Below are positions 34,195-64,000 of a stretch of DNA of 64,000 bases, one piece after another. The translations under genes and the position numbers were made by a program. The notes beneath the pieces are model-generated. The model saw only the letters and a list, made by a program, of their open reading frames with translations. It had not been told where the DNA came from and did not search any database. Position 1 is the first letter of the stretch. Each line of letters begins with the position of its first letter. The stretch is taken from NCBI GenBank assembly GCA_027923505.1, contig BROI01000041.1, forward strand, positions 1 to 64,000, read 5' to 3'. This DNA is from Mayamaea pseudoterrestris. Lineage: Eukaryota.

Positions 34195-34291
34195 GTTGGA
34201 GGTTGATCAGAGGAATCGGACTCGCTGCAGACGAATGTGTCACGATAGCTCCCTCGCTCGTTCTCGCTCTCAAAGCACTGAAATGTTAATC

Positions 34292-41616: not shown

Positions 41617-41682
41617 TTGACGACCCTCCCAAAGACTTGCAGGCTGTGACCGTTGCGCGCCAGGCGACGGCCTGCCGACCCC

Positions 41683-43598: not shown

Positions 43599-43605
43599 GG
43601 TAGCC

Positions 43606-44946: not shown

Positions 44947-45206
44947 AGACTGGTGACAAGTTGTCACCAAATACATTGCCATCCCCTGAGACACCAGCCA
45001 AGCCTACCATCTTGTAGCGCAGCCTGAATAATGATGTTGGCACCATTCTGGTGTATTTTGGGCACCTACAGGGCTTGCTGTAGGGGCGTTTGAATGTCAC
45101 GGCATCTGCGGGCTGAGACTGGTGACAAGTTGTCACCAAATACATTGCCATACCCTGAGACACCAGCCAAGCCTAACATCTTGTAGCGCAGCCTGAATAA
45201 TGATGT
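44945..45206 (+). repeat. SatA, ~1.5 copies
   Basis: TGAGACTGGTGACAAGTTGTCACC... in the same orientation as 5705-15090. Confidence 0.93.
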
Positions 45207-45211
45207 GTCTT

Positions 45212-45254
45212 GGTATACCATTGCATGGATTGCACATCCTGCATCCTTTAAGCA
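45212..45254 (-). repeat. inverted SatB fragment at the SatA inversion point
   Basis: GGTATACCATTGCATGGATTGCACATCCTGCATCCTTTA is the reverse complement (one mismatch) of SatB TAAAGGATGCAGGATGTGCAATCCATTCAATGGTATACC. Confidence 0.85.
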
Positions 45255-46325
45255 CTACGAGATGGTAGTCTTGGCTGGTGTCTCCGGGGATGGCAATGTA
45301 TTTGGTGACAACTTGTCACCAGTCTCAGCCCACTGATGCCGTGACATTCAAACGCCCCTATTTAGCAGGCCCTATAGGTGCCCAAAATACACCAGAATGG
45401 TGCCAACATCATTATCCAATCTGCGCAACAAGATGGTAGGCTTGGGTGGTGTCTCTGGGGATGGCAATGTATTTGGTGACAACTTGTCACCAGTCTCAGC
45501 CGTCGATGCCATGACATTCAAACGCCCCTATAGCAAGCAATAAAGGTGTCCAAATTACACCAGAATGGTGCCAACATCATTATGCAGGCTGCGCAACCAG
45601 ATGGTAGGCTTGGCTGGTGTCTCAGGGGATGGCAATGCATTTGGTGACAACTTGTCACCAGTCTCAGCCCGCAGATGCTGTGACATTCAAACGCCCTTAC
45701 AGCAAGCCCTGTAGGTGCCCAAAATACACCAGAATGGTGCCAACATCATTATTCAGGCTGCGCTACAAGATGGTAGGCTTGGCTGGTGTCTCAGGGGATG
45801 GCAATGTATTTGGTGACAACATGTCACCAGTCTCAGCCGTCGATGCCATGACATTCAAACGCCCCTATAGCAAGCCCTGTAGGTGTCCAAATTACACCAG
45901 AATGGTGCCAACATCATTATTCAGGCTGCGCAAGAAGATGGTAGGCTTGGGTGGTGTCTCAGGGGTTGGCAATGTATTTGGTGACAACATGTCACCAGTC
46001 TCAGCACACAGATGCCATGATATTCAAACGCCCCTACAGCAAGCCCTGTAGATGCCCAAAATACACCAGAATGGTGCCAACATCATTATTCAGGCTGCGC
46101 TACAAGATGGTAGACTTGGCTGGTGTCACTGGGGATGGCAATGTATTTGGTGACAACTTGTCACCAGTCTCAGCCTGCAGATGCTGTGACATATAATTGC
46201 CCCTATAACATGCCCTGTATACACCCAAATTACACCAAAATGGTGCCAACATCATTATTCAGCCTGTGCTACAAGAAAAACTGCCTGGCTGGTCCCTTAG
46301 TAGACTGCAAATGTGATTGGTGACA
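45255..46325 (-). repeat. SatA, inverted orientation, ~6 copies
   Basis: Reverse-complement monomer ...GATGGTAGGCTTGGCTGGTGTCTCAGGGGATGGCAATGTATTTGGTGACAACTTGTCACC... Confidence 0.95.
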
Positions 46326-46481
46326 GCTCACCAATATGTGGATTAAAGATGGCAATGCTTCAAATGATGGGGTTAGCCAAAGTTCTCTGCCTTTTGGGCA
46401 TAGAAGGAATTTTTTAAGAATCTCTTTTACTAGCCTGGCAGGTACCAATCTTACACAACATACATGATCAAAGCCTACATT

Positions 46482-49400
46482 CTAGGCATGCATAAAGGAT
46501 GCAGGATGTGCAATCCATTCAAATTTATACCTACAGACCCTCCAGGAAAATGATCGGGGTTGGGTTTGGCATGGGTCCAGCTACTCCAATACAAACACAC
46601 TCAAAAGCCATAGCCATGAGCCAGCCTGCTTCAATATGAGTCTCTGCGGTGGCTAGGCATGCATAAAGGATGCAGGATGTGCAATCCATTCAAATTTATA
46701 CCTACAGACCCTCCAGGAAAATGACCGGGGTTGGGTTTGGCATGGGTCCAGCTACTCCAATACAAACACACTTAAAAGCCATAGCCATGAGCCAGCCTGC
46801 TTCAATATGAGTCTCTGCGGTTGCTAGGCATGCATATAGGATGCAGGATGTGCAAACCATTCAATAATATACCTTCACACCCTCCAGTAAAATGACCGGG
46901 GTTGGGTTCAGCAATGGTTGAGCTGTTCAAATACAAACACACTCAATAGCCATAGCCATGAGCCAGCCTGCTTCAATATGCGTCTCTGCGGTGGCTAGGC
47001 ATGCATAAAGGATGCAGTATGTGCAATCTATTCAATGGTATACCTTTACACCCTCCAGTTAAATGACTGGGGTTGGGTTCAGCAATGGTTTCAGCTATTC
47101 AAATACAAACACACTCAATAGCCATAGCCATGAGCCAGCCTGCTTCTATATGAGTCTCTGCGGTTGCTGGGCATGAACTTTAGATGTAAAATGTGCAATC
47201 CATTCAATGGTATACCTTCACACCCTCCAGGAAAATGACTGGGGCTGGGTTTGGCATGGGTCCAGCTACTCCAATCTAAACACACTCAAAAGCCATAGCC
47301 ATGAGCCAGCCTGCTTCAATATGAGTCTCTGCGGTTGCTAGGCATGCATAAAGGATGCATGATGTGCAAACCATTCAATGGTATACCTTCACACCCTCAA
47401 GTAAAATGACCGGGGTTGGGTTCAGCAATGGTTGAGCTGTTCAAATACAAACACACTCAATAGCCATAGCCATGAGGCAGCCTGCTTCAATATGCGTCTC
47501 TGCGGTTGCTAGGCATGCATAAAGGATGCAGGATGTGCATTCCATTCAATGGTATACCTTCAAACCCTCCAGTAAAATGACCGGGGTTGGGTACAGCGAT
47601 GGTTTCAGCTATTCAAATACAAACACACTCAATAGCCATAGCCATGAGCCAGCCTGCTTCAATATGCGTCTCTGCGGTGGCTAGGCATGCATAAAGGATA
47701 CAGGATGTGCAATCCATTCAAATTTATACCTACAGACCCTCCAGGAAAATGACCCGGGTTGGGTTTGGCGTGGGTCCAGCTACTCCAATACAAACACACT
47801 CAATAGCCATAGCCATGAGCCAGCCTGCTTCAATATGAGTCTCTGCGGTTGCTAGGCATGCATAAAGGATGCAGGATGTGCAATCCATTCAATGGTATAC
47901 CTTCACACCCTCCAGTAAAATGACCGGGGTTGGGTTCAGCAATGGTTTCAGCTATTCAAATACAAACACACTCAATAGCCCTAGCCATGAGGCAGCCTGC
48001 TTCAATATGAGTCTCTGCGGTTGCTAGGCATGCATAAAGGATGCAGGATGTGCAATCCATTCAAATTTATACCTACAGACCCTCCAGGAAAATGACCGGG
48101 GTTGGGTTTGGCATGGGTCCAGCTACTCCAATACAAACACACTCAAAAGCCATAGCCATGAGCCAGCCTGCTTCAATATGAGTCTCTGCGGTTGCTAGGC
48201 ATGCATAAAGGATGCAGGATGTGCAATCCATTCAATGGTATACCTTCAAACCCTCTGGTTAAATGACTGGGGTTGGGTTCATCAATGGTTTCAGCTATTC
48301 AAAACAAACACACTCAATAGCCATAGGCATGTGCCAGCCAGCTTCAATCTGAGTCTCTGCGGTTGCTAGGCATGCATAAAGGATGCAGGATGTGCAATCC
48401 ATTCAATGGTATACCTTCAAACCCTCCAGTAAAATGACCGGGGTTGGGTTCAGCCATGGTTTCAGCTATTCAAATACAAACACACTCAATAGCCATAGCC
48501 ATGAGGCAGCCTGCTTCAATATGAGTCTCTGCGGTTGCTAGGCATGCATAACGGCATGAGCCAGCCAAGGATGTGCAATCCATTCAATGGTATACCTTCA
48601 AACCCTCCAGTAAAATGACCGGGGTTGGGTTCGGCCAATGGTCACAAGTTCAAATACAAACACACTCAACAGCCTTGGCCATGGGCCAGCCTGTTTCATT
48701 ATGAGTCTCTGCGGTGGCCAGGCATGCATAAAGGATGCAGGATGTGTCAATCCATTCAATGGTATACCTTCAACACCCTCAGTAAAATGACTCAGGGTTG
48801 GGTTCGGCATGGGTTCAGTTATTCAAATACAAACACGCTCAATAGCCATAGCCATGAGTCAGCCTGATTCAATATGAGTCTCTGCGGTTGCTAGGCATGG
48901 ATTAAAGATCCAGGTTGAGCAATCCATTCAATGGTATACCTTCAAACCTTCCAGGAAAATGACTGGGGTTGGGATCAGCCATGGTTTCAGCTATATAAAT
49001 ACAAACACACTCAATAGCCATAGCCATGGGCCAGCCTGCTTCAATATGAGTCTCTGCGGTTGCTAGGCATGGAATAAAGATGCAGGATGTGCAATCCATT
49101 CAATGGTATACCTTCAAACCCTCCAGTAAAATGACCGGGTTGGGTTCAGCAATGGTTTCAGCTATTCAGATACAAACAGATTCAATAGCCATAGCCATGA
49201 GCCAGCCTGCTTCAATATGAGTCTCTGCGGCTGCTAGGCATGGTTAAAGGATGCAGGATGTGCAATCCATTCCATGATATACCTTCACACCCTCCAGTAA
49301 AATGACCGGGGTTGGGTTTAGCAATGGTTTTAGCTGTTTAAATACAAACACACTCAATAGCCATAGCCATGAGCCAGCCTGCTTCAATATGAGTCTCTGC

Positions 49401-52400
49401 GGGTGCTAGGCATGCATAAAGGATGCAGGATGTGCAATCCTGTCAGTGGTATACCTTCAAACCCTCCAGTAAAATGACCGAGGTTAAGTTCAGCTACTCA
49501 AATACAAACACAATCAATAGCCATAGCCATGGACCAGCCTGCATCAATATGAGTCTCTGCGGTTGCTAGGCATGCATAAAGGATGCAGGATGTGCAATCC
49601 ATTCAATGGTATACCTTCAAACCCTCCAGTAAAATGACCGGGGTTGGGTTCAGCAATGGTTTCAGCTATTCAAATACAAACACACTCAATAGCCATAGCC
49701 ATGAGCCAGCCTGCTTCAATATGAGTCTCTGCGGTTGCTAGGCATGAACTATAGATGTAGGATGTGCAATCCATTCAATGGTTTACCTTCAAACCCTCCA
49801 GTAAAATGACTGGGGTTGGGTTCAGCAATGGTTTCAGCTATTCAAATACAAACACACTCAATAGCCATAGCCATGAGCCAGCCTGCTTCAATATGAGTCT
49901 CTGCGGTTGCTAGGCATGCATAAAGGATGCAGGATTTGCAATCCATTCAATGATATACCTTCACACCCTCCAGTAAAATGACCGGGGTTGGGTTCAGCAA
50001 TGGTTGACTCTCCAAATACAAACACACTCAATAGCCATAGCCATGAGCCAGCCTGCTTCAATATGAGTCTCTGCGGTTGCTAGGCATGCATAAAGAATGC
50101 AGGATGTGCAATCCATTCCATGGTATACCTTCAAACCCTCCAGTAAAATGACCGGGCTGGGTTCAGCAATGGTTTCAGCTATTCAAATACAAACACACTT
50201 AATAGCCATAGTCATGAGCCAGCCTGCTTCAATATGAGTCTCTGCGGTTGCTAGGCATGCATAAAGGATGCAGGATTTGCAATCCATTCAATGGTATACC
50301 TTCAAACCCCAGTACTGGGGTTGGGTTCAGCAATGGTTTCGGCTATTCAAAATAAACACACTCAATAGCCATAGCCATGAGCCAGCCTGCTTCAATGTGC
50401 GTCTCTGCGGTCGCTAGGCGCATGCATAAGGATGCAGGATTTGCAATTCATTCAATGGTATACCTTCAAACCCTCCAGTAAAATGACCGGGGTTGGGTTC
50501 AGCAATGGTTTCAGCTTATTCAAAAAACACACTCAATAGCCATAGCCATGAGCCAGCCTGCTTTCAATCTGGTCTCTGCGGTTGCTAGGCATGCATCAAC
50601 GATGCAGGATTTGCAGTCCATTCAATGGTTCCTTCCCCCTTCAGTAAAATGCGGGTTGGGTTCTAGCCATGGTTTCAGCTGTCCCGAAATACACTCAATG
50701 CCATGGCCCCTGCTTCTTGGTCTCTGCGGTTGCTGGGCATGGGTTAAAAGATGCAGGATGTGCAATCCATTCAATGTTCACCTTCAAACCCTAGTAAAGC
50801 GGTGGGTTCGGCATATGCTCCTCCAAAACAATCATGCTCTAGCCATGAGCCAGCCGCTCTTCAACTGGTCTCTGCGGTTGCTAGGCATGGATAAAGGATG
50901 CAGGTTGTGCAATCCGTTCAATGGTTCCTTCACACCCCGTAAAACGGGGTTTCGCTTCGGGTTTCAGCTATTCCCAAACACACTAGCTGCCCCGAGCCAG
51001 CCTGCTTCAATATGAGTCTCTGCGGTTGCTAGGCATGCATAAGGATAGCAGTATAAATATAAACATTTCTTAACCATTGGTATACCTTCAAACCCTCCAG
51101 AAAAATGACCTGGGTTGGGTTCAGCCAAGGTTTCAGCTATTCAAATTTAAACACACTCAATAGCCATAGCCATGAGCCAGCCTGCTTCGATGAGTCTCTG
51201 CGGTTGCTAGGCATGGATTAAAGATGCAGGATGTGCAATCAATTCAATTGTATACATTCACACCCTCCAGTAAAATGACTGGGGTTGGGTGGGGTTTGGT
51301 GGTGTCTGGCAGGCACATGGGTTTCAGCTATTCAAACACACTCAATAATCATATCCATGGGCCATCCAGCTTCAATATGAGGCTCTGCGAATGCTAGGAA
51401 TGCTGAAAGGATGCAGGATGTGCAATTCATTCAATGGTATACCTACAACCCCTCCAGGAAAATGACTGGGGCTGGGTTCGGCATGGGTCCGACTACTGAA
51501 ATATAAACACACTCAATAGCCATAGGCATGTGCCAGACAGCTTCAATCTGAGTCTCTGCGGTTGCTAGGCATGCATAAAAGATGCAGGATGTGCAATCCA
51601 TTCAATGGTATACCTTCAAACCCTCCAGTAAAATGACCGGGGTTGGGTTCAGCCATGGTTTCAGCTATTCAAATACAAACACACTCAATAGCCATAGCCA
51701 TGAGCCAGCCTGCTTCAATATAAGTCTCTGCGGTTGCTAGGCATGGATTAAAGATGTAGGATGTGCAATCTGTTCAATGGTTTACCTACAAACCCTCCAG
51801 GAAAATGACCATGGTTAGTTTCAGCATGGGTTTCAGCTACTCAAATACAAACACACTCAATAGCCAAAGCCATGGGCCTTCCAGCTTCAATATGAGTCTC
51901 TGCGATTGCTAGGAATGCTTTAAAAATGCAGGATGTGCAATCCCTTCAATGGTATACCTTCTAACCCTCCAGTAAAATGACCAGGGTTAAGTTCAGCCAT
52001 GGGTCCAGCTACTCAAATACAAACACACTCAATAGCCATAGCCATTAGCCAGCCTGCATCAATATGAGTCTCTGCGGTTGCTAGGCATGGATTATGGATG
52101 TAGGATGTGCACTCCGTTCAATGGTTTACCTACAAACCCTCAGTAAAATGACCGGGGTTGGGTGGGGTTTGGTGGTGTCTGACAGGCACATGGGTTTCAG
52201 CTATTCAAACACACTCAATAGCCATACCCATGGGCCATTCAGCTTCAATATGAGGCTCTGGGGTTGCTAGGCATGGATTAAAGATGCAGGATGTGCAATC
52301 CATTCAATGGTATACCTTCAAACCCTCCAGTAAAATGAACGGGGTTGGGTTCAGCCATGGTTTCAGCTATTCAAATGCAAACACACTCGATAGCCATAGC

Positions 52401-52541
52401 CATGAGCCAGCCAGCTTCAATAAGAGTCTCTGTTGTTGCAAGGCATGGATTATGGATGTAGGATGTGCAATCCATTTAATGGTATACCTTCCAACCTTCC
52501 AGAAATTTGACCGGGGTTGGGTTCAGCAATGGTTTCAGCTA
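46482..52541 (+). repeat. SatB array, ~35 copies
   Basis: The 172-bp unit (starts at 49692, 49864) is in the same orientation as 15091-23892. Confidence 0.97.
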
Positions 52542-54039
52542 CACCCCTATAGCAAGCCCTGTAGGTGTCCAAAATACACCAGAATGGTGCCAACATCATT
52601 ATCCAGGCTGCGCAACAATATGGTAGGCTTGGCTGGTGTCTCAGGGGATGGCAATGTATTTGGTGACAACTTGTCACCAGTCTCAGCCCGCTGATGCCAT
52701 ACACTCAGACACACCTACATCAGGCCCGGTAGGTGCCCAAATTACACCAGAATAATGCCAACCTCCTTTTTTTCGGCTGCGCTACAAAATGGTAGGCTGT
52801 CCAAAATACACCAGAATGGTGCCAACATCATTATTCAGGCTGCGCTACAAGATGGTAGGCTTGGCTGGTGTCTCCGGGGATGGCAATGTATTTGGTGACA
52901 ACTTGTCACCAGTCTCAGCCCACTGATGCCATGACATTCAAACGCCCCTACATCAGGCCCTGTAGGTGCTTAAATTACACCAAAATGGTGCAAACATCAT
53001 TATTCCGGCTGCACTACAAGTTGGTAGGCTTGGCTGGTGTTTCTGGGGATGGCAATGTATTTGGTGACAACTTGTCACCAGTCTCAGCCCACTGATGCCG
53101 TGACATTCAAACGCCCCTACATCAGGCCCTGTAGGTTTCCAAATTACACCAGAATGGTGCCAACATCATTATTCAGGCTGCGCGACAAGATGGTAGGCTT
53201 GGCTGGTGTTTCCGGGGATGGCAATGTATTTGGTGACCTTTTGTCACCAGTCTCAGCCCGCTGTTGCCGTGACATTCAAACGCCCCTACATCAGGCCCTG
53301 TAGGTGCCCAAATTACACCAGATTGATGCCAACATTTTTTCAGGCTGCGCTACATGATGGTTGGCTTGGCTGGTGTCTCAGGGGATGGCAATGTGTATTT
53401 GGTGACAACTTGTCACCAGTTTTAGCCCGCTGATGCTGTGACATTAAAACGCCCCTATAGCAAGCCCTGTAGGTGTCCAAATTACACCAGAATGGTGCCA
53501 ACATCATTATTCAGGCTGCGCTACAAGATGGTAGGCTTGGCTGGTGTCTCTGGGGATGGCAATGTATTTTGTGACCTTTTGTCACCAGTCTCAGCCCGCT
53601 GTTGCCGTGACATTCAAACGCCCCTACATCAGGCCCTGTAGGTACCCAAATTACACCAGAATGATGCCAACATTTTTCAGACTGCGCTACAAGTTGGTTG
53701 GCTTGGCTGGTGTCTCAGGGGATGGCAATGTGTATTTGGTGACAACTTGTCACCAGTTTTAGCCCGCTGATGCCGTGACATTCAAACGCCCCTATAGCAA
53801 GCCCTGTAGGTGTCCAAATTACACCAGAATGGTGCCAACATCATTATTCAGGCTGCGCTACAAGATGGTAGGCTTGGCTGGTGTCTCCGGTGATGGCAAT
53901 GTATTTGGTGACAACTTGTCACCAGTCTCAGCCCACTGATGCTGTGACATTCAAACGCCCCTTCATCAGGCCCTGTAGGCGGTTAAATTAACACCAGCGA
54001 GCCCTGTAGGTGCCCAAATTAAACCAGCATGGTGCCAAT
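52542..54039 (-). repeat. SatA, inverted orientation, ~9 copies
   Basis: Reverse-complement SatA monomers. ORF-track offsets 52868/53037/53206 give 169 bp. Confidence 0.95.
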
Positions 54040-54332
54040 ATTCCGGCTCAGGGCGGATGCTTCGAGGAGACTGCCTTGGGGACACTCATAAGATACCTTA
54101 TGAGTACACTCTGAGTGATACACATCATCGATGGTTCGGGACACGTCACATGCGACATCAATGGAGGACCGACAACCACAGACCAAGTTGCCGATCCCCA
54201 TCCGATGCCTCTCATTCCTCTTGCTTGCTTGCTTGCCAACCCTGTTGTCTAGCCAGCTTGTTTGTTTGTTTGTTCTTGCCTTTGTTGCTCGAACCGCGTT
54301 TCTCAGCTTTCATTCCCTCATTTCTCTCGATC

Positions 54333-55659
54333 ATGACGCTTGTCCGTTTTCCAGGAGCTCTCAAAGAGTTTGGAGGCGCCTCGCCTGCTTTCCGTTTGCC
54401 GATCCAAACCTCAGCCTCGACTACTTGGTTGGGAGAGGAGATGCCCAAGCAGGAGGAGCGCGCGGAAGCCATGGCGTTTCAGATTGATGGTTGGAAGGAA
54501 GGACAGGCGGTCCTGACGAAGGAGGAAGTTTTCGCGTTGAACAAGAGGATGATCCTAGCTCGCGACCAACCCAACGACAAGCAGCTCTGGCTCGGCACAC
54601 CCGATCGCCTCCACCAGCTGAACGTCGAGGATATTGGCGGCATCTTGACGCTGTCGGTGTTCCAGAGCCAGTATCTCGGGACCCAGCCTGAGCAAGAAGA
54701 CCAGTTGGCGGCGCCAGAGCAGACGGTCATCATCTGCTCGGCTCGACCTTCAGGCACCAAGGATGGAAGCAAGTTCCTCCTCCATGACAACAGCAACCAG
54801 CCCAATATCGGGGATACGCAGCAGCAGTCGGATAATCGCTACATGCCAAGTGGTTTCGCCATTCCGAAAGCAGTCAATCCAATCTTGGCCATAGCCTCGT
54901 GTCAGACGAGGGCCACAAGCGACGCCAAAATGGAGGACTGGTACAATGCCATTCGAGCGGACCACATCCTTTTCCCAAGAGGCGATGAGTTACTGCAGCC
55001 AGTCGTGTTGGTTTTTCATTCCGAGGCTGCGCGACACGCCAGATGCAGCAGGCTTGGCGGGTCCAGGGACTTTGACAGCAATGTAGGGAAACTTGTCACC
55101 AGCTCAGCCCGCAGACGCCGTGACATTCAAACCCCCTACAGCAAGCCCTGTATGCCCCAAATACACCAGAATGAGGCCAACATCCTTATGCAGACTGCGC
55201 TACAAGATGGTAGGCTTGGCTGGTGTCTCAGGGGATGGCAATGTATTTGGACAACTTGCACCAGTCTCAGCACGCGATGCCTTGACATTCACACGCCTAC
55301 AGCAAGCCACTAGGCCGCCCAGAAATACACCAAATGGTGCCAACATCATTATGTCAGGCTGCGCGACAAGATGGAAGCTTGGACTGGGACTCTCGACATT
55401 TGACAACTTGTCAATCAGCCCAGCCTGGACACCAGTCGGTAACCCCCACACATGGCAAGGCCAGTATGGACAAATGCGCACCAATGCGACATTTCGACAG
55501 GTCGCCAGAAATCGCACGTTTCCACACTTCAAAAGTTGCCGACATGTGGTATCTCCCAGCCCTGATTAATATTAAAACCAACACCTGGGTCAAGCACTTC
55601 GAAATCCAATTTCAGAGAACAGATTTACCAACTTGGTTGGACGAATACGCTCGCGTGGA
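54333..55659 (+). other. unidentified ORF-bearing island (non-satellite from ~54040), interrupted by SatA-like sequence (~55020-55430) and truncated by the copia insertion
   Basis: ATG at 54333 opens ~230 codons of protein-like sequence (MTLVRFPGALKEFG...EDWYNAIRADHILFP). A further open frame at 55430-55659 runs into the LTR. No family recognised. Confidence 0.4.
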
Positions 55660-56054
55660 TGACAAGTCGCAGAGCGGCGAAGTCAAGAGCCCGAACCCTA
55701 ATTAGCTTGTGTCGAGTCCGCAGCTGTCGTATGTGACATGTGAATGAAGAAAGTGCGCAACCGTCGTGTGGATGCGTTGTATGAATGGAACGACCAGTTA
55801 CGACTGATGTAATGTGATTGAAAGAAACGGATTGATCGGATGATCTTCCGAGTGGTCGATGTAGCGATGTAGCGATAAGCTCACAATATAGAACTACTAG
55901 TTTGCGACGAGAGTGCAGTCGTATTCGTGTAGTGGCGAGCGCAAGACTATTCGACGAGCCATCTCCATCAAGAGCTGTACAGACCGTGGCCAAGGACCCT
56001 GTATCGGAGCTTTTTGGAGGTAAGACGTTGACTGCGAAATCGTCAACGGTGTTA
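55660..56054 (+). repeat. 5' LTR, family 2 copy 2 (395 bp)
   Basis: TGACAAGTCGC...CGGTGTTA; matches the other four LTR copies. Confidence 0.95.
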
Positions 56055-56151
56055 GATTAACATTTCAGTGCTTTGAGAGCGAGAACGAGCGAGGGAGCTA
56101 TCGTGACACATTCGTCTGCAGCGAGTCCGATTCCTCTGATCAACCTCCACC

Positions 56152-59100
56152 ATGACGACGATTGATGTAACGACCTACAAGCGTGCCGTCGGTAAAGTCT
56201 TCGATATTCCGTGGCTCGCAGCGTCCGCAGCTTGGGATCCAAACGACCCTACCGCAGTGTGTTTCGAGCAAGAGGAACTCACGACTGCGGAGGCGATGGC
56301 CGAACTGTCGGAACAAGACGTGACGAACATTAAGACCCAGTACCAGTGGTCGACGATACGAACAAGCCGATTGCGCAAGCTCATGAGTTGGATTCACGAG
56401 CAACGTCGGACGACTGCGCAATGGCAAGACTTGGAGAAAGACCAGATTACGAGCCGAGACCTCCCAGTAGCGCCGGGGTCACCGACAGCAGGCAACCGCA
56501 GTTTCGGAGACTTCAGCGTTATCGGAGGCAACGACACCACGACGAAACGACACGACATCAAGCTGGATCTGAAGACCATGCTGGAGCTCAAGAACGATCG
56601 CAAGTTCTGCTCCTACTGGCGGGCCTTCAAGAACCGCATGCGAAGCGAGCGACTTGGCTACTTTTGGGACGACGAGTTCAAGGCACCAGCCGCACTCGAC
56701 CCCGAATTCGCCGAGTATAAGTATCAGTGTTCGAAGCTTTTAGCGGCGCTCGAGTATACCTGCAAGACACCGCAGAGCAAGCTCATTGTCCGCAAGCACA
56801 TCGACAGCGCGAATGCCTCAGCGTGCATTGCAGAGTTGGAGGCGACATTCCTCGACGGGATGGCGCGCAAGTTGGATCTACGTTCGGCCGAAGACGAATG
56901 GCGCAATTTCACTCTCGACGCGAGTTACGCCAAGTCTCTCGTCAATTGGCTTATCCAGTGGTCCAGCAAGGAAGAGAACTACAATGACTACGCCGAGGAA
57001 ACCGAGCTACTTACAGCAAGCACGAAGCGTCAGATTTTGGAGCGCGCGGTTTTCCGCCATGCGGATATGGCATCGGCGGTGAACATGGCGCTGATCGAAG
57101 AGTCCAAGACCGGCAACCCGATGACGTACACCCAGTTTTGGAACCTCCTGAACGACGTCGCACGTCAATCTGACAATCGTCGTGGCATCAAGGAGACCGA
57201 GAAGCGTCAGGCGAACCAATCTGAGCAGACCAAGAAAGAGAAGGAGAAGACGAAGAAGGCAAGCGCGAACAATTCCCAGTCTACGCCAAGTAGCAGCAAC
57301 AATCAGCAATCCAATCAGGGGGGCGGTGGTCGCGGCGACTTGAGCACGGGACGAGGCGGCGGCGGCCGCGGTCGGGGAGATACTCGTTCGTATGTTCGCA
57401 GCTATGCCGACACGAAGACGATCGAAATTCCCAGCGACGTGAATGCGACGATTCCACCAAACACGTGGCGACTCCTTACCCGCGATCAGCAACACGAAGT
57501 GTTTGAACGCCGTGGTACGAGTCGAGCGGCCAGTGCTGCAGGTGGTTCGACATCAGCAACACAGGCAGGCACCACGCAGACGACGAGTACAACACGCAAC
57601 GCAAACGTCGCAGCCACTTCATCAGCGGCAACGACGGCGAGTGCGGCGACCGAACGTGTGAACAACACCAGCCGTGGCTCAGCGATGCGAAGTTTCTTAG
57701 GTCCAGACCAGCCCACGACTACGACTCGGGGAGCGAATATCGCTCAGAGTCGCAAGTACAAAGTCGCGAGCATTGACTTGGATAAGCATTCAGCGTCGAC
57801 TGTCGATCGCGGCGCGAGTGGCGGAGTATGGGGAGCGGACGGCCGCATCCTTACCGAGGACAAGTTCCACAAGATTGAAGTCACTGGAGTCGGTGGTCTC
57901 AAACTTCCGGACCTGTCTACCGTCACAGCAGTCGCCAAGCTTAAGAGCACCAAGGGTTGGGTCGTCGGCGAGTTCCATAATTACGCATATTCTGGAACCG
58001 GCAAGACGATTCATTCGAGTATGCAGATGGAAGCCTTCGGACTTCATGTCAACGATAAGCATTACAACTTTGGTGGCAAGTTACGAATCGAAACGCCAGA
58101 TGGATACAAGTTTATGCTCGGAATGGAAAGTGGCATGGCGACCTTGCCAATGTTTCCAGTGTCGGCGCATGAGCTTCACACCTTACCTCGGGTCATGATG
58201 ACCTTCGATGGGCCTTGGGATCCGAACGAGTTTGACGTCGAGCCGACCGAGGACGACGACTATGACTCTTCGGATGACGATGACGACGAGGACGACGTAC
58301 CGGACTTGTTGTCGCGCGACGAAGACGACGAAGACAGTGACGACGAAGAGGGCTTCACGCGCGTGACACGCTCGCGTACGCGGAATCGCACCCATCGTCA
58401 AAGCAACGTGACGTATACGAATCTCGGACACGACAATCAACCTGTTTACACCGAGAAGGAGCTGAATGTTTGTGCCGTCGTACAGAAGTACAATGCGGAT
58501 CTCGTCTATCAGCCCTACAAGTCTATCCTGCCAAAGAAACCCGATATCGACGCATTGCTGCCGAACTTTGCATGGTACCCGGCGCAGACGATCAAGGATA
58601 CTTTGCGCCACAGCACGCAGTTCAACATGCACGAGCGCCGATACCCCCCACGAATGCATCGAAAGAGCCGATTCCTGAACGTCTACCGTCTAGATGATCG
58701 AGTGGCCCATGACACCATGTTCTTCGACGAACCTGCCATGGATGACCATATCGACGGACATGCAGGGTGCACATGCGTGCAGCTATTCTATGGTTGTCGC
58801 AGTCAGATCATTGTCGTGTATCCCATGCGGACGAAAGGTGACGTACCGAAACGATTCCGTGATTTCATCCGCGAGTTTGGAGCTCCGTTGGAAGTCTTCT
58901 CGGATAATGCGAAAGAAGCGATGAGTGCCGAGTTTGACGAAGTAATGCGCGAGTTCATGATTCGCCGTCGTCATACATCGGAGCCGTACTATCAGAATCA
59001 AAATCCAGCCGAGCGCATCATCGGGCACGTAAAGGAAAGTCATGAACGACTTATGGACCGAACGGGCACTCCGGCATGCTTCTGGCTACGCGCTTTACTC

Positions 59101-62013
59101 TTTCAGACCGAGATGTACCGTCATTTGTCGCATCCTGCCTTGGACGGCAAGTCTCCCATCGAGTTTATCACTGGGCAAGTCCCCGACGTGTCGAAGTATT
59201 TGCATTTTCGTTGGTTTGAAATTGTCAACTACTTTGTCAAGGATGTCGAGGCCCCGAAGACCCGCCAGCGCGCGGCGTACTGGCTTGGTCCCAACACGAC
59301 GTGCGGAGACGACCTGACGTACTTCATCTGCGATTGCGAGACACACGAGATCATGACGCGATCGGTTTGCTTACCCCGAAACGACCCAAAATTTTTGAAC
59401 CTTCGCGTACCGGCACCTGCTTCCCCAGTCATGAAAGAAGGGGAGCCGCGTCTCTATACCGTACCTGGTCTAGGTGGCGAGATCCTTATGCCGGAAATGA
59501 TCAAGAAGATTACCGACGCCGACAGCAGAGACGATGATTCTTTCATTCCTGACGAAGACGATACCCCTTTGGTCGAGACGGTGGAATACCCGGAAGATGA
59601 CGATATGACCGACGGGGAGCTAGATCCTAATCCTGCCGATGACGACGACGACAAGCCGAAGAAGAAGAACATCAATCCGTGGCGCAAACTCCCGAAGTAT
59701 GCACCCGATGAACTTATCGGCAAGTCGTTTCTCATGAAGACGGACGACGGGCAAGAAGTTCGAGCGACCGTCATGAGCAAGCTGAACAACCGCGACGCCC
59801 AGAACCATCAAAACATTAAAATGATGCTGAAACTTGGTAACGGCGAAGCGGATGAAGTCATGTCCTATGTCGAGGTTTCCGATCTCTACGAGGCCGAAGT
59901 GAACCAAGACATGGCGAATCCTGAGCGTAAATGGTTCTTCAAGGAGATTCTAGACCATCAGGGTCCGCTGACGAGCAAGTCGAAGAACTGGAAGCACTCC
60001 AAGTGGAACGTCCTTGTACAATGGGACGATGGATCCAAGACTTGGGAGCCTCTCAACGCGATGATCGAAAGCGACAAAGTATCAGTGGCAGCCTACGCGC
60101 AAAAGCATAATCTTCTCGACAAGGACGGATGGGCATCGTTGAATCGATGGGCCCGGAACGCCAAGAAGGTTGCGCGCAAGGTGGCGACCGCCCGAATGGA
60201 GCAGCAGAAGAACGGACCGCGCTACAAGTTTGGAGTCCAAGTACCCCGAGATTGGAAGGAAGCGCGGCGTTTGCAGGAAGCTGCAGGGCACACGAAGTGG
60301 ACGGATGCGGAAGGCGTGGAGCTTGCGAACCTGGACGAGTACGAGACGTTTCAAGATCTTGGTCCGAGTTCCACCACAACACCACCAACTGGTTACCAGA
60401 AGATCCGAGTCCATTTTGTGTACGATGTCAAGCACGATTTGCGATACAAGGCACGTCTCGTTGCAGGCGGCCACATGACGAAAGACAACGACGATGCCTA
60501 CTCCAGTGTTATCTCATTGAAGGCAATGCGTCTAGCTCTCGTCATTGGAGAAGCGAACGGCAAGAAGTGCATGGTCGGTGACATTGGGAATGCTTATCTC
60601 GAAGCGTTCACCAAGGAGAAGGTATACTTCGTTGGAGGCCCCGAGTTCGGGGAGCGCGAAGGACACATCCTGGTCATCGTCAAGGCTTTGTACGGATTGC
60701 GAACGAGCGGAGCACGATTTCACGAACGCTTAGCCGACGCCCTACTTGCGGAAGGGTGGAAGCCGTCCTATTGCGATTCCGATCTGTGGATCAAGGACGC
60801 CGGCGACAGCTACGACTACCTCTGTGTATGGGTCGACGATCTGTTGAATATTTCAGACGATCCAGCAGCGTTCTTCAAGATGCTAGAGGAGAAGTACAAG
60901 TTTAAGCTCAAAGGTGTTGGACATCCCGAGTATCATCTCGGCGGTGACTTTGGACGAGACCCTGACGGAACTCTTTACTGGTCGGCCAAGACCTACGTTG
61001 CGAAACTCTTGGCGCAGTACGAGCGTTTGTTTGAAGGTCCTCCGAAGAAGTATTCATCACCAATCGACAAAGACGATCATCCAGAACTTGACCAAAGCGA
61101 GCTACTGAACGACCAAGAGAAGAAGATTTACCAGTCTCTAGTCGGAGCACTTCAGTGGGCGATTACTTTGGGACGATTTGACATTGCCGTTGCAGTTGTG
61201 AGTCTGTCGCGATTCCGTGTGGAGCCGCGCAAGGGACACCTGCAGCGGGTGAAGCGAGTCTGTGGATATTTGCGAGAGTTACCGGACGCAGCAATCCGTT
61301 TCCGTACGAAGTGGCCAGCCAACGAGGAGCACTTCGGCACCATGGAGGAACAAGATTGGGAGCGCAGCGTTTACGAGAAGGACGGAGTTGATGAGATGTT
61401 GGACGTCTACCCACCGCCAAAGGGTGTGACTGTACGAACATCAACTTTCGAGGATGCGTGTCTCATGCATTGCATGGTGACAGGCAAGTCATTGGAAGGA
61501 GTTTTGTCATTTGTCAACCAGACGCCTGTCGACTGGCATTGCAAACTCCAGGCTACAGTCGAGACTGCGACCTTCGGATCGGAATTCGGCGTAGCAAAGA
61601 GTGGAACGGATATCAGCATTTCTCTACGCGCGTCGCTCATGGCTATGGGCGTACCATTGGAGAAGTCTGCCTGGATGTACGGAGACAACCAAGCAGTGAT
61701 TACGCAATCTACAATCCCGAGTTCGACATTGTCCAAGCGACACAATGCGTTGGCCTACCATCGTGTTCGTTGGGCAGTTGCTGCGGGAATTATCAAGTTT
61801 GTGAAGATTGACGGAAAGGAGAACATTGCGGACGTACTGACGAAGTACCTGCCGTACTGTGATGCGATGCCATTGCTCAAGCCAGTATTGTTTTGGCGCG
61901 GCGATACATCGTATGCGATTGTGAAGGACAAGAATGCGGCTACGACGAGCAGCGTACCCGAGGGGAGTGACAAGTCGCAGAGCGGCGAAGTCAAGAGCCC
62001 GAACCCTAATTAG
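56152..62013 (+). CDS. Gag-Pol polyprotein (gag, protease, integrase, chromodomain-like module, RT, RNase H), 1953 aa
   Basis: Uninterrupted ORF. PR: VDRGASGG. IN: D(AHDTMFF)-D(SDNAKE)-E(NPAERII). RT: YKARLVAGGH, DIGNAYLEA, KALYGLRTSG, WVDDLL. RH: TATFGSEF, GDNQAV, ENIADVLTK. IN precedes RT, the copia order. The stop codon lies 46 nt inside the 3' LTR. Confidence 0.97.
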   Translation: MTTIDVTTYKRAVGKVFDIPWLAASAAWDPNDPTAVCFEQEELTTAEAMAELSEQDVTNIKTQYQWSTIRTSRLRKLMSWIHEQRRTTAQWQDLEKDQITSRDLPVAPGSPTAGNRSFGDFSVIGGNDTTTKRHDIKLDLKTMLELKNDRKFCSYWRAFKNRMRSERLGYFWDDEFKAPAALDPEFAEYKYQCSKLLAALEYTCKTPQSKLIVRKHIDSANASACIAELEATFLDGMARKLDLRSAEDEWRNFTLDASYAKSLVNWLIQWSSKEENYNDYAEETELLTASTKRQILERAVFRHADMASAVNMALIEESKTGNPMTYTQFWNLLNDVARQSDNRRGIKETEKRQANQSEQTKKEKEKTKKASANNSQSTPSSSNNQQSNQGGGGRGDLSTGRGGGGRGRGDTRSYVRSYADTKTIEIPSDVNATIPPNTWRLLTRDQQHEVFERRGTSRAASAAGGSTSATQAGTTQTTSTTRNANVAATSSAATTASAATERVNNTSRGSAMRSFLGPDQPTTTTRGANIAQSRKYKVASIDLDKHSASTVDRGASGGVWGADGRILTEDKFHKIEVTGVGGLKLPDLSTVTAVAKLKSTKGWVVGEFHNYAYSGTGKTIHSSMQMEAFGLHVNDKHYNFGGKLRIETPDGYKFMLGMESGMATLPMFPVSAHELHTLPRVMMTFDGPWDPNEFDVEPTEDDDYDSSDDDDDEDDVPDLLSRDEDDEDSDDEEGFTRVTRSRTRNRTHRQSNVTYTNLGHDNQPVYTEKELNVCAVVQKYNADLVYQPYKSILPKKPDIDALLPNFAWYPAQTIKDTLRHSTQFNMHERRYPPRMHRKSRFLNVYRLDDRVAHDTMFFDEPAMDDHIDGHAGCTCVQLFYGCRSQIIVVYPMRTKGDVPKRFRDFIREFGAPLEVFSDNAKEAMSAEFDEVMREFMIRRRHTSEPYYQNQNPAERIIGHVKESHERLMDRTGTPACFWLRALLFQTEMYRHLSHPALDGKSPIEFITGQVPDVSKYLHFRWFEIVNYFVKDVEAPKTRQRAAYWLGPNTTCGDDLTYFICDCETHEIMTRSVCLPRNDPKFLNLRVPAPASPVMKEGEPRLYTVPGLGGEILMPEMIKKITDADSRDDDSFIPDEDDTPLVETVEYPEDDDMTDGELDPNPADDDDDKPKKKNINPWRKLPKYAPDELIGKSFLMKTDDGQEVRATVMSKLNNRDAQNHQNIKMMLKLGNGEADEVMSYVEVSDLYEAEVNQDMANPERKWFFKEILDHQGPLTSKSKNWKHSKWNVLVQWDDGSKTWEPLNAMIESDKVSVAAYAQKHNLLDKDGWASLNRWARNAKKVARKVATARMEQQKNGPRYKFGVQVPRDWKEARRLQEAAGHTKWTDAEGVELANLDEYETFQDLGPSSTTTPPTGYQKIRVHFVYDVKHDLRYKARLVAGGHMTKDNDDAYSSVISLKAMRLALVIGEANGKKCMVGDIGNAYLEAFTKEKVYFVGGPEFGEREGHILVIVKALYGLRTSGARFHERLADALLAEGWKPSYCDSDLWIKDAGDSYDYLCVWVDDLLNISDDPAAFFKMLEEKYKFKLKGVGHPEYHLGGDFGRDPDGTLYWSAKTYVAKLLAQYERLFEGPPKKYSSPIDKDDHPELDQSELLNDQEKKIYQSLVGALQWAITLGRFDIAVAVVSLSRFRVEPRKGHLQRVKRVCGYLRELPDAAIRFRTKWPANEEHFGTMEEQDWERSVYEKDGVDEMLDVYPPPKGVTVRTSTFEDACLMHCMVTGKSLEGVLSFVNQTPVDWHCKLQATVETATFGSEFGVAKSGTDISISLRASLMAMGVPLEKSAWMYGDNQAVITQSTIPSSTLSKRHNALAYHRVRWAVAAGIIKFVKIDGKENIADVLTKYLPYCDAMPLLKPVLFWRGDTSYAIVKDKNAATTSSVPEGSDKSQSGEVKSPNPN
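61960..61967 (+). promoter_or_regulatory. polypurine tract GAGGGGAG
   Basis: Immediately precedes the TG of the 3' LTR. Confidence 0.8.
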
Positions 62014-62343
62014 CTTGTGTCGAGTCCGCAGCTGTCGTATGTGACATGTGAATGAAGAAAGTGCGCAACCGTCGTGTGGATGCGTTGTATGAATGGAACG
62101 ACCAGTTACGACTGATGTAATGTGATTGAAAGAAACGGATTGATCGGATGATCTTCCGAGTGGTCGATGTAGCGATGTAGCGATAAGCTCACAATATAGA
62201 ACTACTAGTTTGCGACGAGAGTGCAGTCGTATTCGTGTAGTGGCGAGCGCAAGACTATTCGACGAGCCATCTCCATCAAGAGCTGTACAGACCGTGGCCA
62301 AGGACCCTGTATCGGAGCTTTTTGGAGGTAAGACGTTGACTGC
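61968..62343 (+). repeat. 3' LTR of copy 2, lacking its last 19 bp
   Basis: Matches the LTR up to ...GTTGACTGC, after which a new TGACAAG begins. Confidence 0.93.
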
Positions 62344-62738
62344 TGACAAGTCGCAGAGCGGCGAAGTCAAGAGCCCGAACCCTAATTAGCTTGTGTCGAG
62401 TCCGCAGCTGTCGTATGTGACATGTGAATGAAGAAAGTGCGCAACCGTCGTGTGGATGCGTTGTATGAATGGAACGACCAGTTACGACTGATGTAATGTG
62501 ATTGAAAGAAACGGATTGATCGGATGATCTTCCGAGTGGTCGATGTAGCGATGTAGCGATAAGCTCACAATATAGAACTACTAGTTTGCGACGAGAGTGC
62601 AGTCGTATTCGTGTAGTGGCGAGCGCAAGACTATTCGACGAGCCATCTCCATCAAGAGCTGTACAGACCGTGGCCAAGGACCCTGTATCGGAGCTTTTTG
62701 GAGGTAAGACGTTGACTGCGAAATCGTCAACGGTGTTA
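62344..62738 (+). repeat. 5' LTR, family 2 copy 3 (395 bp)
   Basis: TGACAAG...CGGTGTTA. Confidence 0.95.
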
Positions 62739-62835
62739 GATTAACATTTCAGTGCTTTGAGAGCGAGAACGAGCGAGGGAGCTATCGTGACACATTCGTC
62801 TGCAGCGAGTCCGATTCCTCTGATCAACCTCCACC

Positions 62836-64000
62836 ATGACGACGATTGATGTAACGACCTACAAGCGTGCCGTCGGTAAAGTCTTCGATATTCCGTGGCT
62901 CGCAGCGTCCGCAGCTTGGGATCCAAACGACCCTACCGCAGTGTGTTTCGAGCAAGAGGAACTCACGACTGCGGAGGCGATGGCCGAACTGTCGGAACAA
63001 GACGTGACGAACATTAAGACCCAGTACCAGTGGTCGACGATACGAACAAGCCGATTGCGCAAGCTCATGAGTTGGATTCACGAGCAACGTCGGACGACTG
63101 CGCAATGGCAAGACTTGGAGAAAGACCAGATTACGAGCCGAGACCTCCCAGTAGCGCCGGGGTCACCGACAGCAGGCAACCGCAGTTTCGGAGACTTCAG
63201 CGTTATCGGAGGCAACGACACCACGACGAAACGACACGACATCAAGCTGGATCTGAAGACCATGCTGGAGCTCAAGAACGATCGCAAGTTCTGCTCCTAC
63301 TGGCGGGCCTTCAAGAACCGCATGCGAAGCGAGCGACTTGGCTACTTTTGGGACGACGAGTTCAAGGCACCAGCCGCACTCGACCCCGAATTCGCCGAGT
63401 ATAAGTATCAGTGTTCGAAGCTTTTAGCGGCGCTCGAGTATACCTGCAAGACACCGCAGAGCAAGCTCATTGTCCGCAAGCACATCGACAGCGCGAATGC
63501 CTCAGCGTGCATTGCAGAGTTGGAGGCGACATTCCTCGACGGGATGGCGCGCAAGTTGGATCTACGTTCGGCCGAAGACGAATGGCGCAATTTCACTCTC
63601 GACGCGAGTTACGCCAAGTCTCTCGTCAATTGGCTTATCCAGTGGTCCAGCAAGGAAGAGAACTACAATGACTACGCCGAGGAAACCGAGCTACTTACAG
63701 CAAGCACGAAGCGTCAGATTTTGGAGCGCGCGGTTTTCCGCCATGCGGATATGGCATCGGCGGTGAACATGGCGCTGATCGAAGAGTCCAAGACCGGCAA
63801 CCCGATGACGTACACCCAGTTTTGGAACCTCCTGAACGACGTCGCACGTCAATCTGACAATCGTCGTGGCATCAAGGAGACCGAGAAGCGTCAGGCGAAC
63901 CAATCTGAGCAGACCAAGAAAGAGAAGGAGAAGACGAAGAAGGCAAGCGCGAACAATTCCCAGTCTACGCCAAGTAGCAGCAACAATCAGCAATCCAATC
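62836..64000 (+). CDS. Gag-Pol N-terminus of copy 3 (partial, open to the window end)
   Basis: The ATG sits 492 nt from the LTR start, the same offset as 56152 in copy 2, and the sequence repeats the region from 56152 onward. Confidence 0.9.
   Translation, partial: MTTIDVTTYKRAVGKVFDIPWLAASAAWDPNDPTAVCFEQEELTTAEAMAELSEQDVTNIKTQYQWSTIRTSRLRKLMSWIHEQRRTTAQWQDLEKDQITSRDLPVAPGSPTAGNRSFGDFSVIGGNDTTTKRHDIKLDLKTMLELKNDRKFCSYWRAFKNRMRSERLGYFWDDEFKAPAALDPEFAEYKYQCSKLLAALEYTCKTPQSKLIVRKHIDSANASACIAELEATFLDGMARKLDLRSAEDEWRNFTLDASYAKSLVNWLIQWSSKEENYNDYAEETELLTASTKRQILERAVFRHADMASAVNMALIEESKTGNPMTYTQFWNLLNDVARQSDNRRGIKETEKRQANQSEQTKKEKEKTKKASANNSQSTPSSSNNQQSN

Follow-up and report, generated by a model that had tools for sequence, protein, structure and literature searches.

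A divergent chromo-fold domain between integrase and reverse transcriptase of a CoDi-like Ty1/copia retrotransposon in a satellite-rich region of Mayamaea pseudoterrestris

A 62-residue segment of a copia-type polyprotein from Mayamaea pseudoterrestris is a divergent chromo-fold domain that lies between integrase and reverse transcriptase and is flanked by a small barrel and a basic helix. It is encoded in a 64,000-nucleotide stretch of contig BROI01000041.1 (assembly GCA_027923505.1), which is the window analysed throughout. Judged on its sequence, the element that carries it is a CoDi-like Ty1/copia LTR retrotransposon, with the gene order PR-INT-RT-RH, a copia-type reverse transcriptase (RVT_2) and LTRs of 395 bp. 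Integrase chromodomains are the classic example of how a mobile element can read chromatin to find safe landing sites, and to our knowledge they occur almost only in Ty3/gypsy elements. Here the chromo-fold domain, barrel and basic helix together form an extension between integrase and reverse transcriptase that may tether integration to silent chromatin, a proposal for which we consider the chances evenly balanced. The relevant features of the element, of which the window holds three copies (family 2), are as follows.

55660 to 56054, plus strand: 5' LTR of copy 2, 395 bp
56152 to 62013, plus strand: intact gag-pol open reading frame of copy 2, 1953 aa, uninterrupted
58711 to 59013, plus strand: integrase catalytic core, with D854, D918 and E954 as the D,D35E motif, read by eye
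59719 to 59916, plus strand: predicted small beta-barrel, Tudor/SH3-like, residues 1190-1255, directly preceding the chromo-fold module
59932 to 60117, plus strand: predicted chromo-fold module of copy 2, polyprotein residues 1261-1322, three strands followed by a short and a longer helix
60133 to 60183, plus strand: conserved basic helix after the module, residues 1328-1344 (helix H139-155 in the two-domain model)
60385 to 61020, plus strand: reverse transcriptase, Pfam RVT_2, residues 1412-1623, E 8.7e-21
61968 to 62343, plus strand: 3' LTR of copy 2, without its last 19 bp, abutting the next LTR
62344 to 64000, plus strand: copy 3, with its 5' LTR at 62344-62738 and its open reading frame from 62836, running off the window
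27968 to 34686, minus strand: copy 1, with two identical 395-bp LTRs and the module at 30211-30396

In copy 2 the module reads WFFKEILDHQGPLTSKSKNWKHSKWNVLVQWDDGSKTWEPLNAMIESDKVSVAAYAQKHNLL (59932-60117, plus strand), exactly as quoted by a first-pass annotation made from the DNA alone, and it falls within the uninterrupted 1953-aa frame. The same annotation placed the module in copy 1 and, diverged, in a second copia family (family 1). Both assignments are borne out: the 62 residues of copy 1 (30211-30396, minus strand) are identical, with two nucleotide differences from copy 2 that are both silent, while family 1 carries the module at about 1140-1298 on the minus strand, where tblastn with the family-2 polyprotein gives 36.5% identity over 208 aa of module and preceding barrel, a stretch interrupted by three in-frame stops. 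A long acidic linker lies N-terminal of the barrel in the polyprotein. Downstream of the module, after about 90 residues, comes RVT_2, the sole Pfam match of the polyprotein; no rve match to the integrase core was found in it, and the best PDB sequence match of that core, the HTLV-2 integrase core, is not significant (E 0.6).

Predicted structures indicate that the module very probably has a chromo fold. The single-domain AlphaFold2 model (pLDDT 93.4) has strands at 7-14, 30-35 and 40-44 and helices at 45-51 and 53-62, and this pattern recurs in a two-domain model of barrel and module (pLDDT 88.3). The predicted three-stranded antiparallel sheet packed on a C-terminal helix is the topology of chromo and chromoshadow domains. 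Consistent with this, the top Foldseek rows are chromo or chromoshadow domains nearly throughout, with TM up to 0.77 and with E-values that are all above 0.001 for the single-domain and two-domain models alike. In the VIA structure comparison the solved structures matched are almost exclusively chromatin readers, at Z below 8 throughout, the zone where a match may be merely a common arrangement; the chromodomains score 7.3 (Chd1), 6.9 (Oxpecker) and 6.7 (Chp1 and dHP1). Among named ESM-Atlas clusters, those closest to the module all belong to PF00385 Chromo, at scores of 0.80-0.83, which is a lead only. Sequence models gave a different answer. At E<=1, Pfam Chromo and Chromo_shadow matched neither the whole polyprotein nor the 62-aa module, the 25 families listed out of 32 for 50 aligned homologues included no Chromo family (the remaining seven being single-member), a profile of 50 sequences retrieved no chromodomain from PDB sequences at E<=10, and a single-sequence match to the CDYL2 chromodomain was not significant (E 0.23). 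The chromodomain call of the first-pass annotation, checked by HMM and structure prediction, therefore holds for the fold and fails for the sequence models. Because standard domain models miss the module, it will be absent from the output of annotation pipelines.

The module is conserved in copia-type polyproteins that make up a very large lineage. A search with a 156-aa segment that includes it brought up 1276 cluster representatives (E<=1e-3), of which 469 remain at E<=1e-10 and 18 at E<=1e-30, far more than chance, and the pair of barrel and module is conserved in the 1276 protein clusters. When 18 long homologues were scanned, RVT_2 followed the module in 14, rve preceded it in one and nothing was found in three. 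Just before the basic helix, G1326 is kept in 73 and W1327 in 76 of 78 aligned sequences.

Over the same 78 sequences, two of the three aromatic-cage positions (1261, W/F/Y, and W1291) are conserved, in a register taken from aligned ranges and the usual cage numbering. In the structural alignment, residues 22-74 of the dHP1 chain lie on 70-130 of the model and Polycomb 24-73 on 70-127. The first cage tyrosine of dHP1 and Polycomb presumably falls on W1261, a position that is aromatic in 68 sequences (W40/F19/Y9). Position 1291 is W in 77, and the adjacent 1292-1293 are mostly E/D. The third cage position, 1294, is Gly rather than aromatic in 67 of the 78, in agreement with the missing third aromatic that had been noted by eye. 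Strands 1 and 2 are separated by a conserved loop that is 9 residues longer (H-x-G-P-L ... Y-K-G-S), which may give the module a mode of binding unlike that of HP1-type domains. Within this loop, position 1280 is Y/W/H in 76 of 78 sequences, and this residue may substitute for the third cage aromatic.

The first-pass annotation mentioned chromodomains in some diatom copia elements, and this matches Llorens et al. 2009, who, in the portion of the paper available, report that the integrase of CoDi-A elements carries a putative chromodomain at its C-terminus (PMC2774666; cited in PMC11541908). On that portion, the domain as such was published for diatom copia in 2009 and is not new. CoDi-A and CoDi-like elements share with the element described here a copia gene order in which a chromodomain-like module follows integrase and precedes reverse transcriptase. 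The same portion of the CoDi-A account makes no mention of a preceding barrel, a missing third aromatic or a satellite setting (PMC2774666). For the Ty3/gypsy chromoviruses, the integrase chromodomain is described as steering new copies into heterochromatin (Gao et al. 2008, via the available part of PMC11541908). Those elements likewise have a chromo-fold domain appended to the integrase of an LTR element, from which a common tethering principle may be inferred. Chromoviruses are, however, ordered RT-RH-INT with the domain at the polyprotein C-terminus, whereas here the order is PR-INT-RT-RH, the reverse transcriptase is RVT_2 and not RVT_1, and the domain is internal; moreover, family 2 apparently has only two cage aromatics and has the extra barrel beyond its acidic linker. 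By analogy the family-2 element would work like a chromovirus, yet it is no member of that group.

Compared with HP1-type chromo and chromoshadow domains (9cea, 6mha, 3g7l, 7vrf, 5xyw), the module shows 11-20% identity with no HMM match, and differs in its longer conserved loop between strands 1 and 2 and in the Gly at the third cage position. The double chromodomains of Chd1/CHD4, cpSRP43 CD2-CD3, SHH1 SAWADEE and the SETDB1 tandem Tudor are tandem small units, as here; cpSRP43 CD2-3 is among the top Foldseek rows of the two-domain model (E 0.015, probability 0.99), and other tandem readers follow at E 0.13-0.5. Copia elements that cluster in centromere-type regions offer a further comparison. 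According to the available parts of the two sources, Tal1 of Arabidopsis is a centromere-seeking copia (PMC11735389), single copia families occupy centromere-type regions in Dictyota and Schizocladia, Tal1 and Evade have no chromodomain and their targeting maps to integrase, and brown-algal centromeres are largely without satellites (10.64898/2025.12.07.692804). In contrast, the elements described here lie among satellite arrays. The setting comprises the following.

1 to 5150, minus strand: degraded copia element of family 1, truncated by the start of the window, with module and barrel at about 1140-1586 and in-frame stops
5151 to 15373, plus strand: main block of a 169-bp satellite (SatA)
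23907-27967, 34687-37223 and 44945-45206, plus strand: further SatA blocks
45252-46328, 52541-53997 and 55024-55387, minus strand: further SatA blocks
15381 to 23888, plus strand: 172-bp satellite (SatB), with a second block at 46482-52541
about 37936 to 43823: unrelated retroelement, the fifth element, amid the satellite region

The two satellites, with consensus and phase taken from alignment to real monomers, occupy most of the 64-kb window, which confirms the satellite setting described at first pass. That description also counted four insertions from two families. Two families are present, and the insertions come down to two or three independent events, since copies 2 and 3 form a single tandem block with an LTR-LTR junction; copy 3 has 0 mismatches to copy 2 in 1657 bases. 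Copy 2 stands in a non-satellite island and its 5' flank is not satellite. In copy 1 the reverse transcriptase frame is broken by a 1-bp deletion. This copy has no target-site duplication and its flanks differ (the far ends of the other copies lie outside the window), and at its insertion site the satellite phase has lost 21 bases, a pattern suggestive of recombination and not of clean insertion by integrase. Within each LTR pair the two sequences agree at every position, over 395 bases in one pair and 376 in the other, suggesting very recent arrival and not long survival. The unrelated retroelement yielded no module in a tblastn search with the family-2 polyprotein. As an element without the module thus also sits in the satellites, passive accumulation explains the setting equally well. 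The nearest atlas clusters of this neighbour come from Oomycota and Bacillariophyta, which points, weakly, to a stramenopile host.

An origin of the satellites from the LTR, or a sharing of LTR ends, was considered and rejected: an 8-base match (TGACAAGT) falls in a palindrome, 17 bases long, within the 169-bp unit, and the local alignments of LTR and satellite score 9.0 and 8.5, values reached by 147/200 and 179/200 shuffles and so due to chance. Likewise, rRNA or another known RNA was discarded as the identity of a GC-rich block, with no Rfam match across the whole window. In public sequencing data, eight runs from two studies contain 70-80% of the words sampled from the element, and a further run contains 10%; no RNA run is among those listed, so these matches are uninformative on expression. 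Element and satellite co-occur in public-run contigs over 52500-64000, for which positions are not given, and none of these contigs reads across the LTR-LTR junction or from an LTR end into its flank. One run holds many variants, and the contig depths are not copy numbers. Metagenome contigs of 2.7-7.4 kb add six loci, which are whole or partial elements without flanks and are uninformative on satellites.

Under the tethering proposal, the module would remain joined to integrase after processing and would anchor the integration complex to silent chromatin rich in repeats, where its contact would be a methylated histone tail or a resident protein. Insertion would thereby be biased toward repeat-rich silent regions, as with the chromodomains of Ty3/gypsy chromoviruses. 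That the module has any role in insertion-site choice is a possibility that we place just short of an even chance; that these particular satellites are centromeric and specifically targeted is improbable. The basic helix after the module and the closeness of RVT_2, only about 90 residues on, could instead point to a role in the element's own replication, such as nucleic-acid binding, particle assembly or reverse transcription, with the satellites holding tolerated insertions spread by local recombination. Copy 1 without its target-site duplication, the tandem copies 2 and 3 with their LTR-LTR junction and the presence of a different retroelement in the same arrays would all suit such a role, as would the recombinant CoDi copies lacking target-site duplications in Phaeodactylum (PMC2806351, in the part available). 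However, the absence of differences within the LTR pairs speaks for very recent arrival, the solved structures matched by fold are almost exclusively chromatin readers, and the available part of PMC11541908 links the integrase chromodomains found in other LTR elements with targeting. A purely replicative role is accordingly rather unlikely, if still a serious contender.

The module might also act like a chromoshadow domain, self-pairing or binding a host HP1-like protein or PxVxL-type peptide, so that targeting would be indirect or the module would merely serve integrase multimerisation. Chromodomains come within 1 VIA Z unit (Chd1, Oxpecker, Chp1 and dHP1, at the values given above), which is a tie, and the aromatics at 1261 (68/78) and 1291 (77/78) are kept although a pure chromoshadow role does not need them. 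We regard this reading as unlikely. Predicted self-pairing of a 68-aa module scored 0.01 against a mark of 0.32, a result obtained without alignment or controls that counts neither way. It is very improbable that the resemblance arose by chance, the module being a strand-strand-strand-helix unit and lineage-specific spacer unrelated to Royal-family domains.

With tethering to silent chromatin retained as the working proposal, a large copia lineage carries, at the level of fold, a sequence-divergent equivalent of the chromoviral domain, and the extra barrel and apparently incomplete cage make it a natural test case for which chromo-fold features are needed in targeting. A stronger version, in which barrel and two-aromatic module are a dedicated two-part tether, acquired once by a very large lineage of marine-protist copia elements that spans at least 1276 protein clusters, and driving repeated, very recent insertion in this genome into nucleosome-sized (169/172-bp) arrays of centromeric or pericentromeric chromatin, is quite improbable. 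If true, it would place the element beside plant CRM and brown-algal ECR elements as their copia counterpart, and would make the pair a tandem reader borne by a transposable element, of a kind not found described in the literature examined. Should the satellite association hold genome-wide, these elements would provide a second, independent system for studying the co-evolution of retrotransposons with satellites and centromeres in algae.

A putative chromodomain in copia elements of the diatom type is already known. Passages of Llorens et al. 2009 (PMC2774666) describe integrases of clade-A CoDi-like diatom copia elements with a putative C-terminal chromodomain, call it the first outside Ty3/gypsy and propose an independent capture; a passage of an Ectocarpus Hi-C paper (PMC11541908) repeats the citation. 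The first-pass annotation, which had seen a chromodomain-like module in a copia integrase, was therefore right to associate the domain with diatom copia, where it has been in print since 2009. In Maumus et al. 2009 (PMC2806351) the chromodomain is nowhere mentioned, with zero occurrences of the term, and no link between CoDi-like elements and satellites was found in the one collection of papers searched. Our additions are modest: fold-level support, a two-aromatic cage and conserved extra loop that hold across the family, and an accompanying small barrel.

The module (window 59932-60117, plus strand) translates without a stop into 62 residues, identical to those first quoted, which are residues 1261-1322 of the polyprotein of family-2 copy 2. 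The sole Pfam match in this 1953-aa polyprotein is RVT_2, the copia-type reverse transcriptase (RT), at residues 1412-1623 (E 8.7e-21). Upstream of it lies an integrase catalytic triad, D854, D918 and E954, with 35 residues separating the last two (motif read by eye); Pfam rve has no match in the family-2 polyprotein, and the best solved structure for the integrase, the HTLV-2 core, is not significant (E 0.6). Since the triad precedes RVT_2 and LTRs flank the frame, the gene order is that of Ty1/copia, and the module sits between integrase and RT as originally placed. The frame ends 46 bases into the 3' LTR (61968-62013), and the LTR thus supplies its stop codon and the 15 codons before it.

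Homologues were sought with a 156-aa segment (residues 1190-1345) containing the module and the small barrel directly before it (residues 1190-1255; together, the pair). Nearly the whole segment was covered in 77 of 152 homologous proteins, and 49 of these 77 (those of at most 340 aa) were joined with the window's segment as alignment A1. Sequence models did not recover a chromodomain. Neither the module nor the whole polyprotein matches Pfam Chromo or Chromo_shadow at E<=1, and Chromo is absent from the 25 listed of the 32 Pfam families for 50 A1 members, the other 7 having at most one member each. Against PDB sequences, the phmmer match to the CDYL2 chromodomain was not significant (E 0.23) and ranked below spurious NKG2-D rows; the A1 profile found no chromodomain at E<=10 among 177,635 distinct PDB sequences.

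Structural comparison, in contrast, points to the chromo fold. The AlphaFold2 model of the module alone (68 aa, alignment A2) has a pLDDT of 93.4 and shows three strands, then a short and a longer helix; the two-domain model of barrel and module, made on A1, is also confident (pLDDT 88.3, pTM 0.66). In Foldseek, nearly all top rows for the module model are chromodomains or chromoshadow domains, with TM of at most 0.77, identity of at most 23% and E-values that are weak (at least 0.35) for a small domain. A wide search with VIA, a method independent of Foldseek, aligned 48,161 representative chains with the model and placed chains with a chromo or chromoshadow domain at every one of ranks 1-36 for the single-domain model. 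The feature-based look-up in the ESM Atlas returned Chromo clusters only, at scores of 0.80-0.83 that by the tool's own measure are a lead only. The fold claim is thus borne out by structure prediction but not by sequence models. Judged from these predicted models, the module very probably has a chromo fold; a chance resemblance is highly improbable.

Residues 22-74 of the dHP1 chain align to model positions 70-130 and Polycomb 24-73 to 70-127; on these ranges their first cage tyrosine falls on W1261, which is W in 40, F in 19 and Y in 9 of 78 aligned sequences. The second cage tryptophan, position 1291, is W in 77 of the 78. In canonical chromodomains the third aromatic lies three residues further on, here position 1294, where 67 of the 78 have glycine; the absence of this residue, first noted by eye, is therefore a family-wide trait. 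Positions 1292-1293, beside the conserved tryptophan, are mostly E or D. Strands 1 and 2 are joined by a loop that exceeds its HP1 counterpart by about nine residues (motifs read by eye) and is itself highly conserved: H1269 in 74 of 78, G1271 in 69, P1272 in 70, Y/W/H1280 in 76, G1282 in 73 and S1283 in 71. This loop may provide a stand-in for the third aromatic. The derived chromodomains of plant CRM elements lack the three aromatics, according to a passage in PMC11541908.

The barrel is additional to the usual copia integrase C-terminal region, which by eye occupies about residues 1010-1075; an acidic linker of roughly 120 residues lies between the two. With the two-domain model, Foldseek put tandem readers on top, cpSRP43 CD2-CD3 first (E 0.015, probability 0.99), followed by the SETDB1 tandem Tudor, SAWADEE and the CHD1/CHD4 double chromodomains. 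Because the whole-pair rmsd to these readers is 10-15 A, they do not share its placement of one unit relative to the other.

The 156-aa segment retrieved 1276 representatives of 50%-identity clusters at E<=1e-3, of which 469 pass E<=1e-10 and 18 pass E<=1e-30; the sources are ENA and JGI assemblies. When a word-based search was confined to proteins 1074-3418 aa in length, two close relatives emerged, with 77-78% identity. Among 18 long homologues scanned, RVT_2 follows the module in 14, rve precedes it in one, and three have no match. On this sequence comparison, the 1276 representatives and the recurrent RVT_2 indicate that the pair is long established and under selection in a large copia lineage and is not peculiar to this genome.

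The window is mostly two satellites, with 169-bp (SatA) and 172-bp (SatB) units, among which the elements lie as follows.

Satellites and elements of the window (coordinates, strand, feature)
1 to about 5150, minus: family 1, a degraded copia element truncated by the window start
5151-15373, 23907-27967, 34687-37223 and 44945-45206, plus: SatA, 169-bp satellite
15381-23888 and 46482-52541: SatB, 172-bp satellite
27968-34686, minus: family-2 copy 1, two identical 395-bp LTRs
37221-37744 and 43824-44947: 242-bp tandem repeat (2.2 copies) and 180-bp tandem repeat (6.2 copies), flanking the GC-rich element
about 37936-43823, minus: GC-rich element, 5.9 kb, GC about 63%, within the same arrays
45252-46328, 52541-53997 and 55024-55387, minus: SatA
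53997-55024 and 55413-55660: non-satellite island inside the arrays
56152-62013, plus: gag-pol frame of family-2 copy 2, uninterrupted, 1953 aa, flanked by 395-bp LTRs
from 62344: family-2 copy 3, directly abutting the copy-2 3' LTR

SatA is on the plus strand until 45206 and on the minus strand from 45252, and blocks of the two satellites alternate (44945-46328, 52541-55387); inversions and rearrangements of blocks have therefore taken place here. Each SatA unit (e.g. window 34700-34730) contains a 17-base palindrome, GGTGACAAGTTGTCACC, 8 bases of which equal the first 8 of the LTR; when alignments were compared with those of shuffled sequences, the likeness of SatA to the LTR was no more than chance. 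From the 180-bp unit, a stretch of 42 bases recurs at 37745-37786. The 418-aa ORF of the island (54057-55313) has no Pfam match. In public-run contigs, depth over part of the island (54420-54803) is very low or falls to zero, against thousands for the satellites. Element and satellites co-occur in 8 public runs from 2 studies, in contigs that give no positions and whose depths do not stand for copy numbers; many sequence variants of the element occur within one run. Across the two studies, five coded organism labels are attached to the runs in which the satellites and the element (55400-62400; 70-80% of its sampled words) are found.

The family-2 copies in these arrays are young. Relative to copy 2, copy 1 carries 66 substitutions and a few indels, one of which, the loss of 1 bp opposite copy-2 position 60713 of the window, breaks its RT frame; its module (30211-30396) encodes an identical protein with two silent nucleotide differences. 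The 169-bp array surrounds copy 1 cleanly, yet its flanks lack a target-site duplication and SatA phase passes from 93 on the left to 114 on the right, with 21 bases absent, a pattern more in keeping with recombination between two insertions of different phase, or with an event not mediated by integrase, than with one clean integration. Copies 2 and 3 do not differ across all 1657 bases of copy 3 inside the window. The copy-2 3' LTR (61968-62343) lacks its final 19 bases and is joined at 62343/62344 to a complete copy-3 5' LTR (to 62738); this looks like a two-LTR circle recombined into a resident copy, or an assembly artefact, and no public-run contig bridges the junction. The copy-2 5' LTR adjoins 247 bases without a match elsewhere in the window, beside degenerate satellite. 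All five LTR copies (27968-28362, 34292-34686, 55660-56054, 61968-62343 and 62344-62738) are identical, whereas copies 1 and 2 show 66 differing sites across about 5.9 kb of internal sequence, a rate at which about 4 differences would be expected per 395 bases; this is a hint that the LTRs have been homogenised or that copies have recombined. A passage of PMC2806351 describes intact CoDi copies of Phaeodactylum that lack a target-site duplication and whose two LTRs are >99% identical, and takes them as products of recombination between copies. In family 1, the barrel and module are 36.5% identical to the family-2 polyprotein over 208 residues (tblastn), in a frame with three stops. The coordinates first assigned to these features were correct, but the "four insertions from two families" reduce to two or three independent events, copies 2 and 3 being joined LTR to LTR.

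Chromoviral chromodomains are held to enable targeted insertion, a view summarised in part of PMC11541908. Sections of a 2025 preprint (10.64898/2025.12.07.692804) report copia families clustered at centromeres in Dictyota and Schizocladia, by unknown means of targeting, and map targeting by the Arabidopsis copia elements Tal1/Evade to an integrase without a chromodomain. In favour of targeting here are the very recent arrival of the copies, which follows from LTR pairs with 0 differences in 395 and in 376 bases, and the presence of two module-bearing families; the small number of independent events and the lack of a marker for centromeric identity of the satellites are against it or neutral. 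The case within the window for satellite/centromere targeting is accordingly weaker than first stated, and such a targeting system is a conjecture.

The arrays also contain the GC-rich element, which may be gypsy-, DIRS- or other-like. Its terminal direct repeats, each of 218 bp, are 95% alike, and its 590-aa frame has a reverse-transcriptase YVDD motif, although Pfam RVT_1 reaches only E 0.25; in the atlas, the clusters closest to it carry RVT_1 and come from Oomycota and Bacillariophyta. No module was found in it by tblastn with the family-2 polyprotein. The region thus gathers unrelated elements, as passive accumulation in satellites would have it; that account, with a replication or nucleic-acid role, is rather unlikely. 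A chromoshadow-like, protein-binding role is an unlikely reading too; in VIA, chromoshadow structures score within one Z unit of chromodomains, a tie, and fold search does not separate the two. The best-supported reading is tethering by the barrel and chromo-fold unit. As a C-terminal extension of integrase, the unit would stay on the enzyme after protease cleavage and may bind a histone mark or heterochromatin protein; the integration complex would then be tethered to some feature of the chromatin on silent, repeat-rich DNA, and insertion biased thereby. We consider some role of the unit in insertion-site choice, of whatever kind, to be nearly an even prospect. For the barrel the Tudor assignment is weak, but a Tudor-like barrel in a copia element would, if true, be of some note, because a 2025 paper on Ectocarpus (PMC12477816) reports a gypsy element that carries a Tudor domain at its C-terminus as the first transposable element with such a domain to its authors' knowledge.
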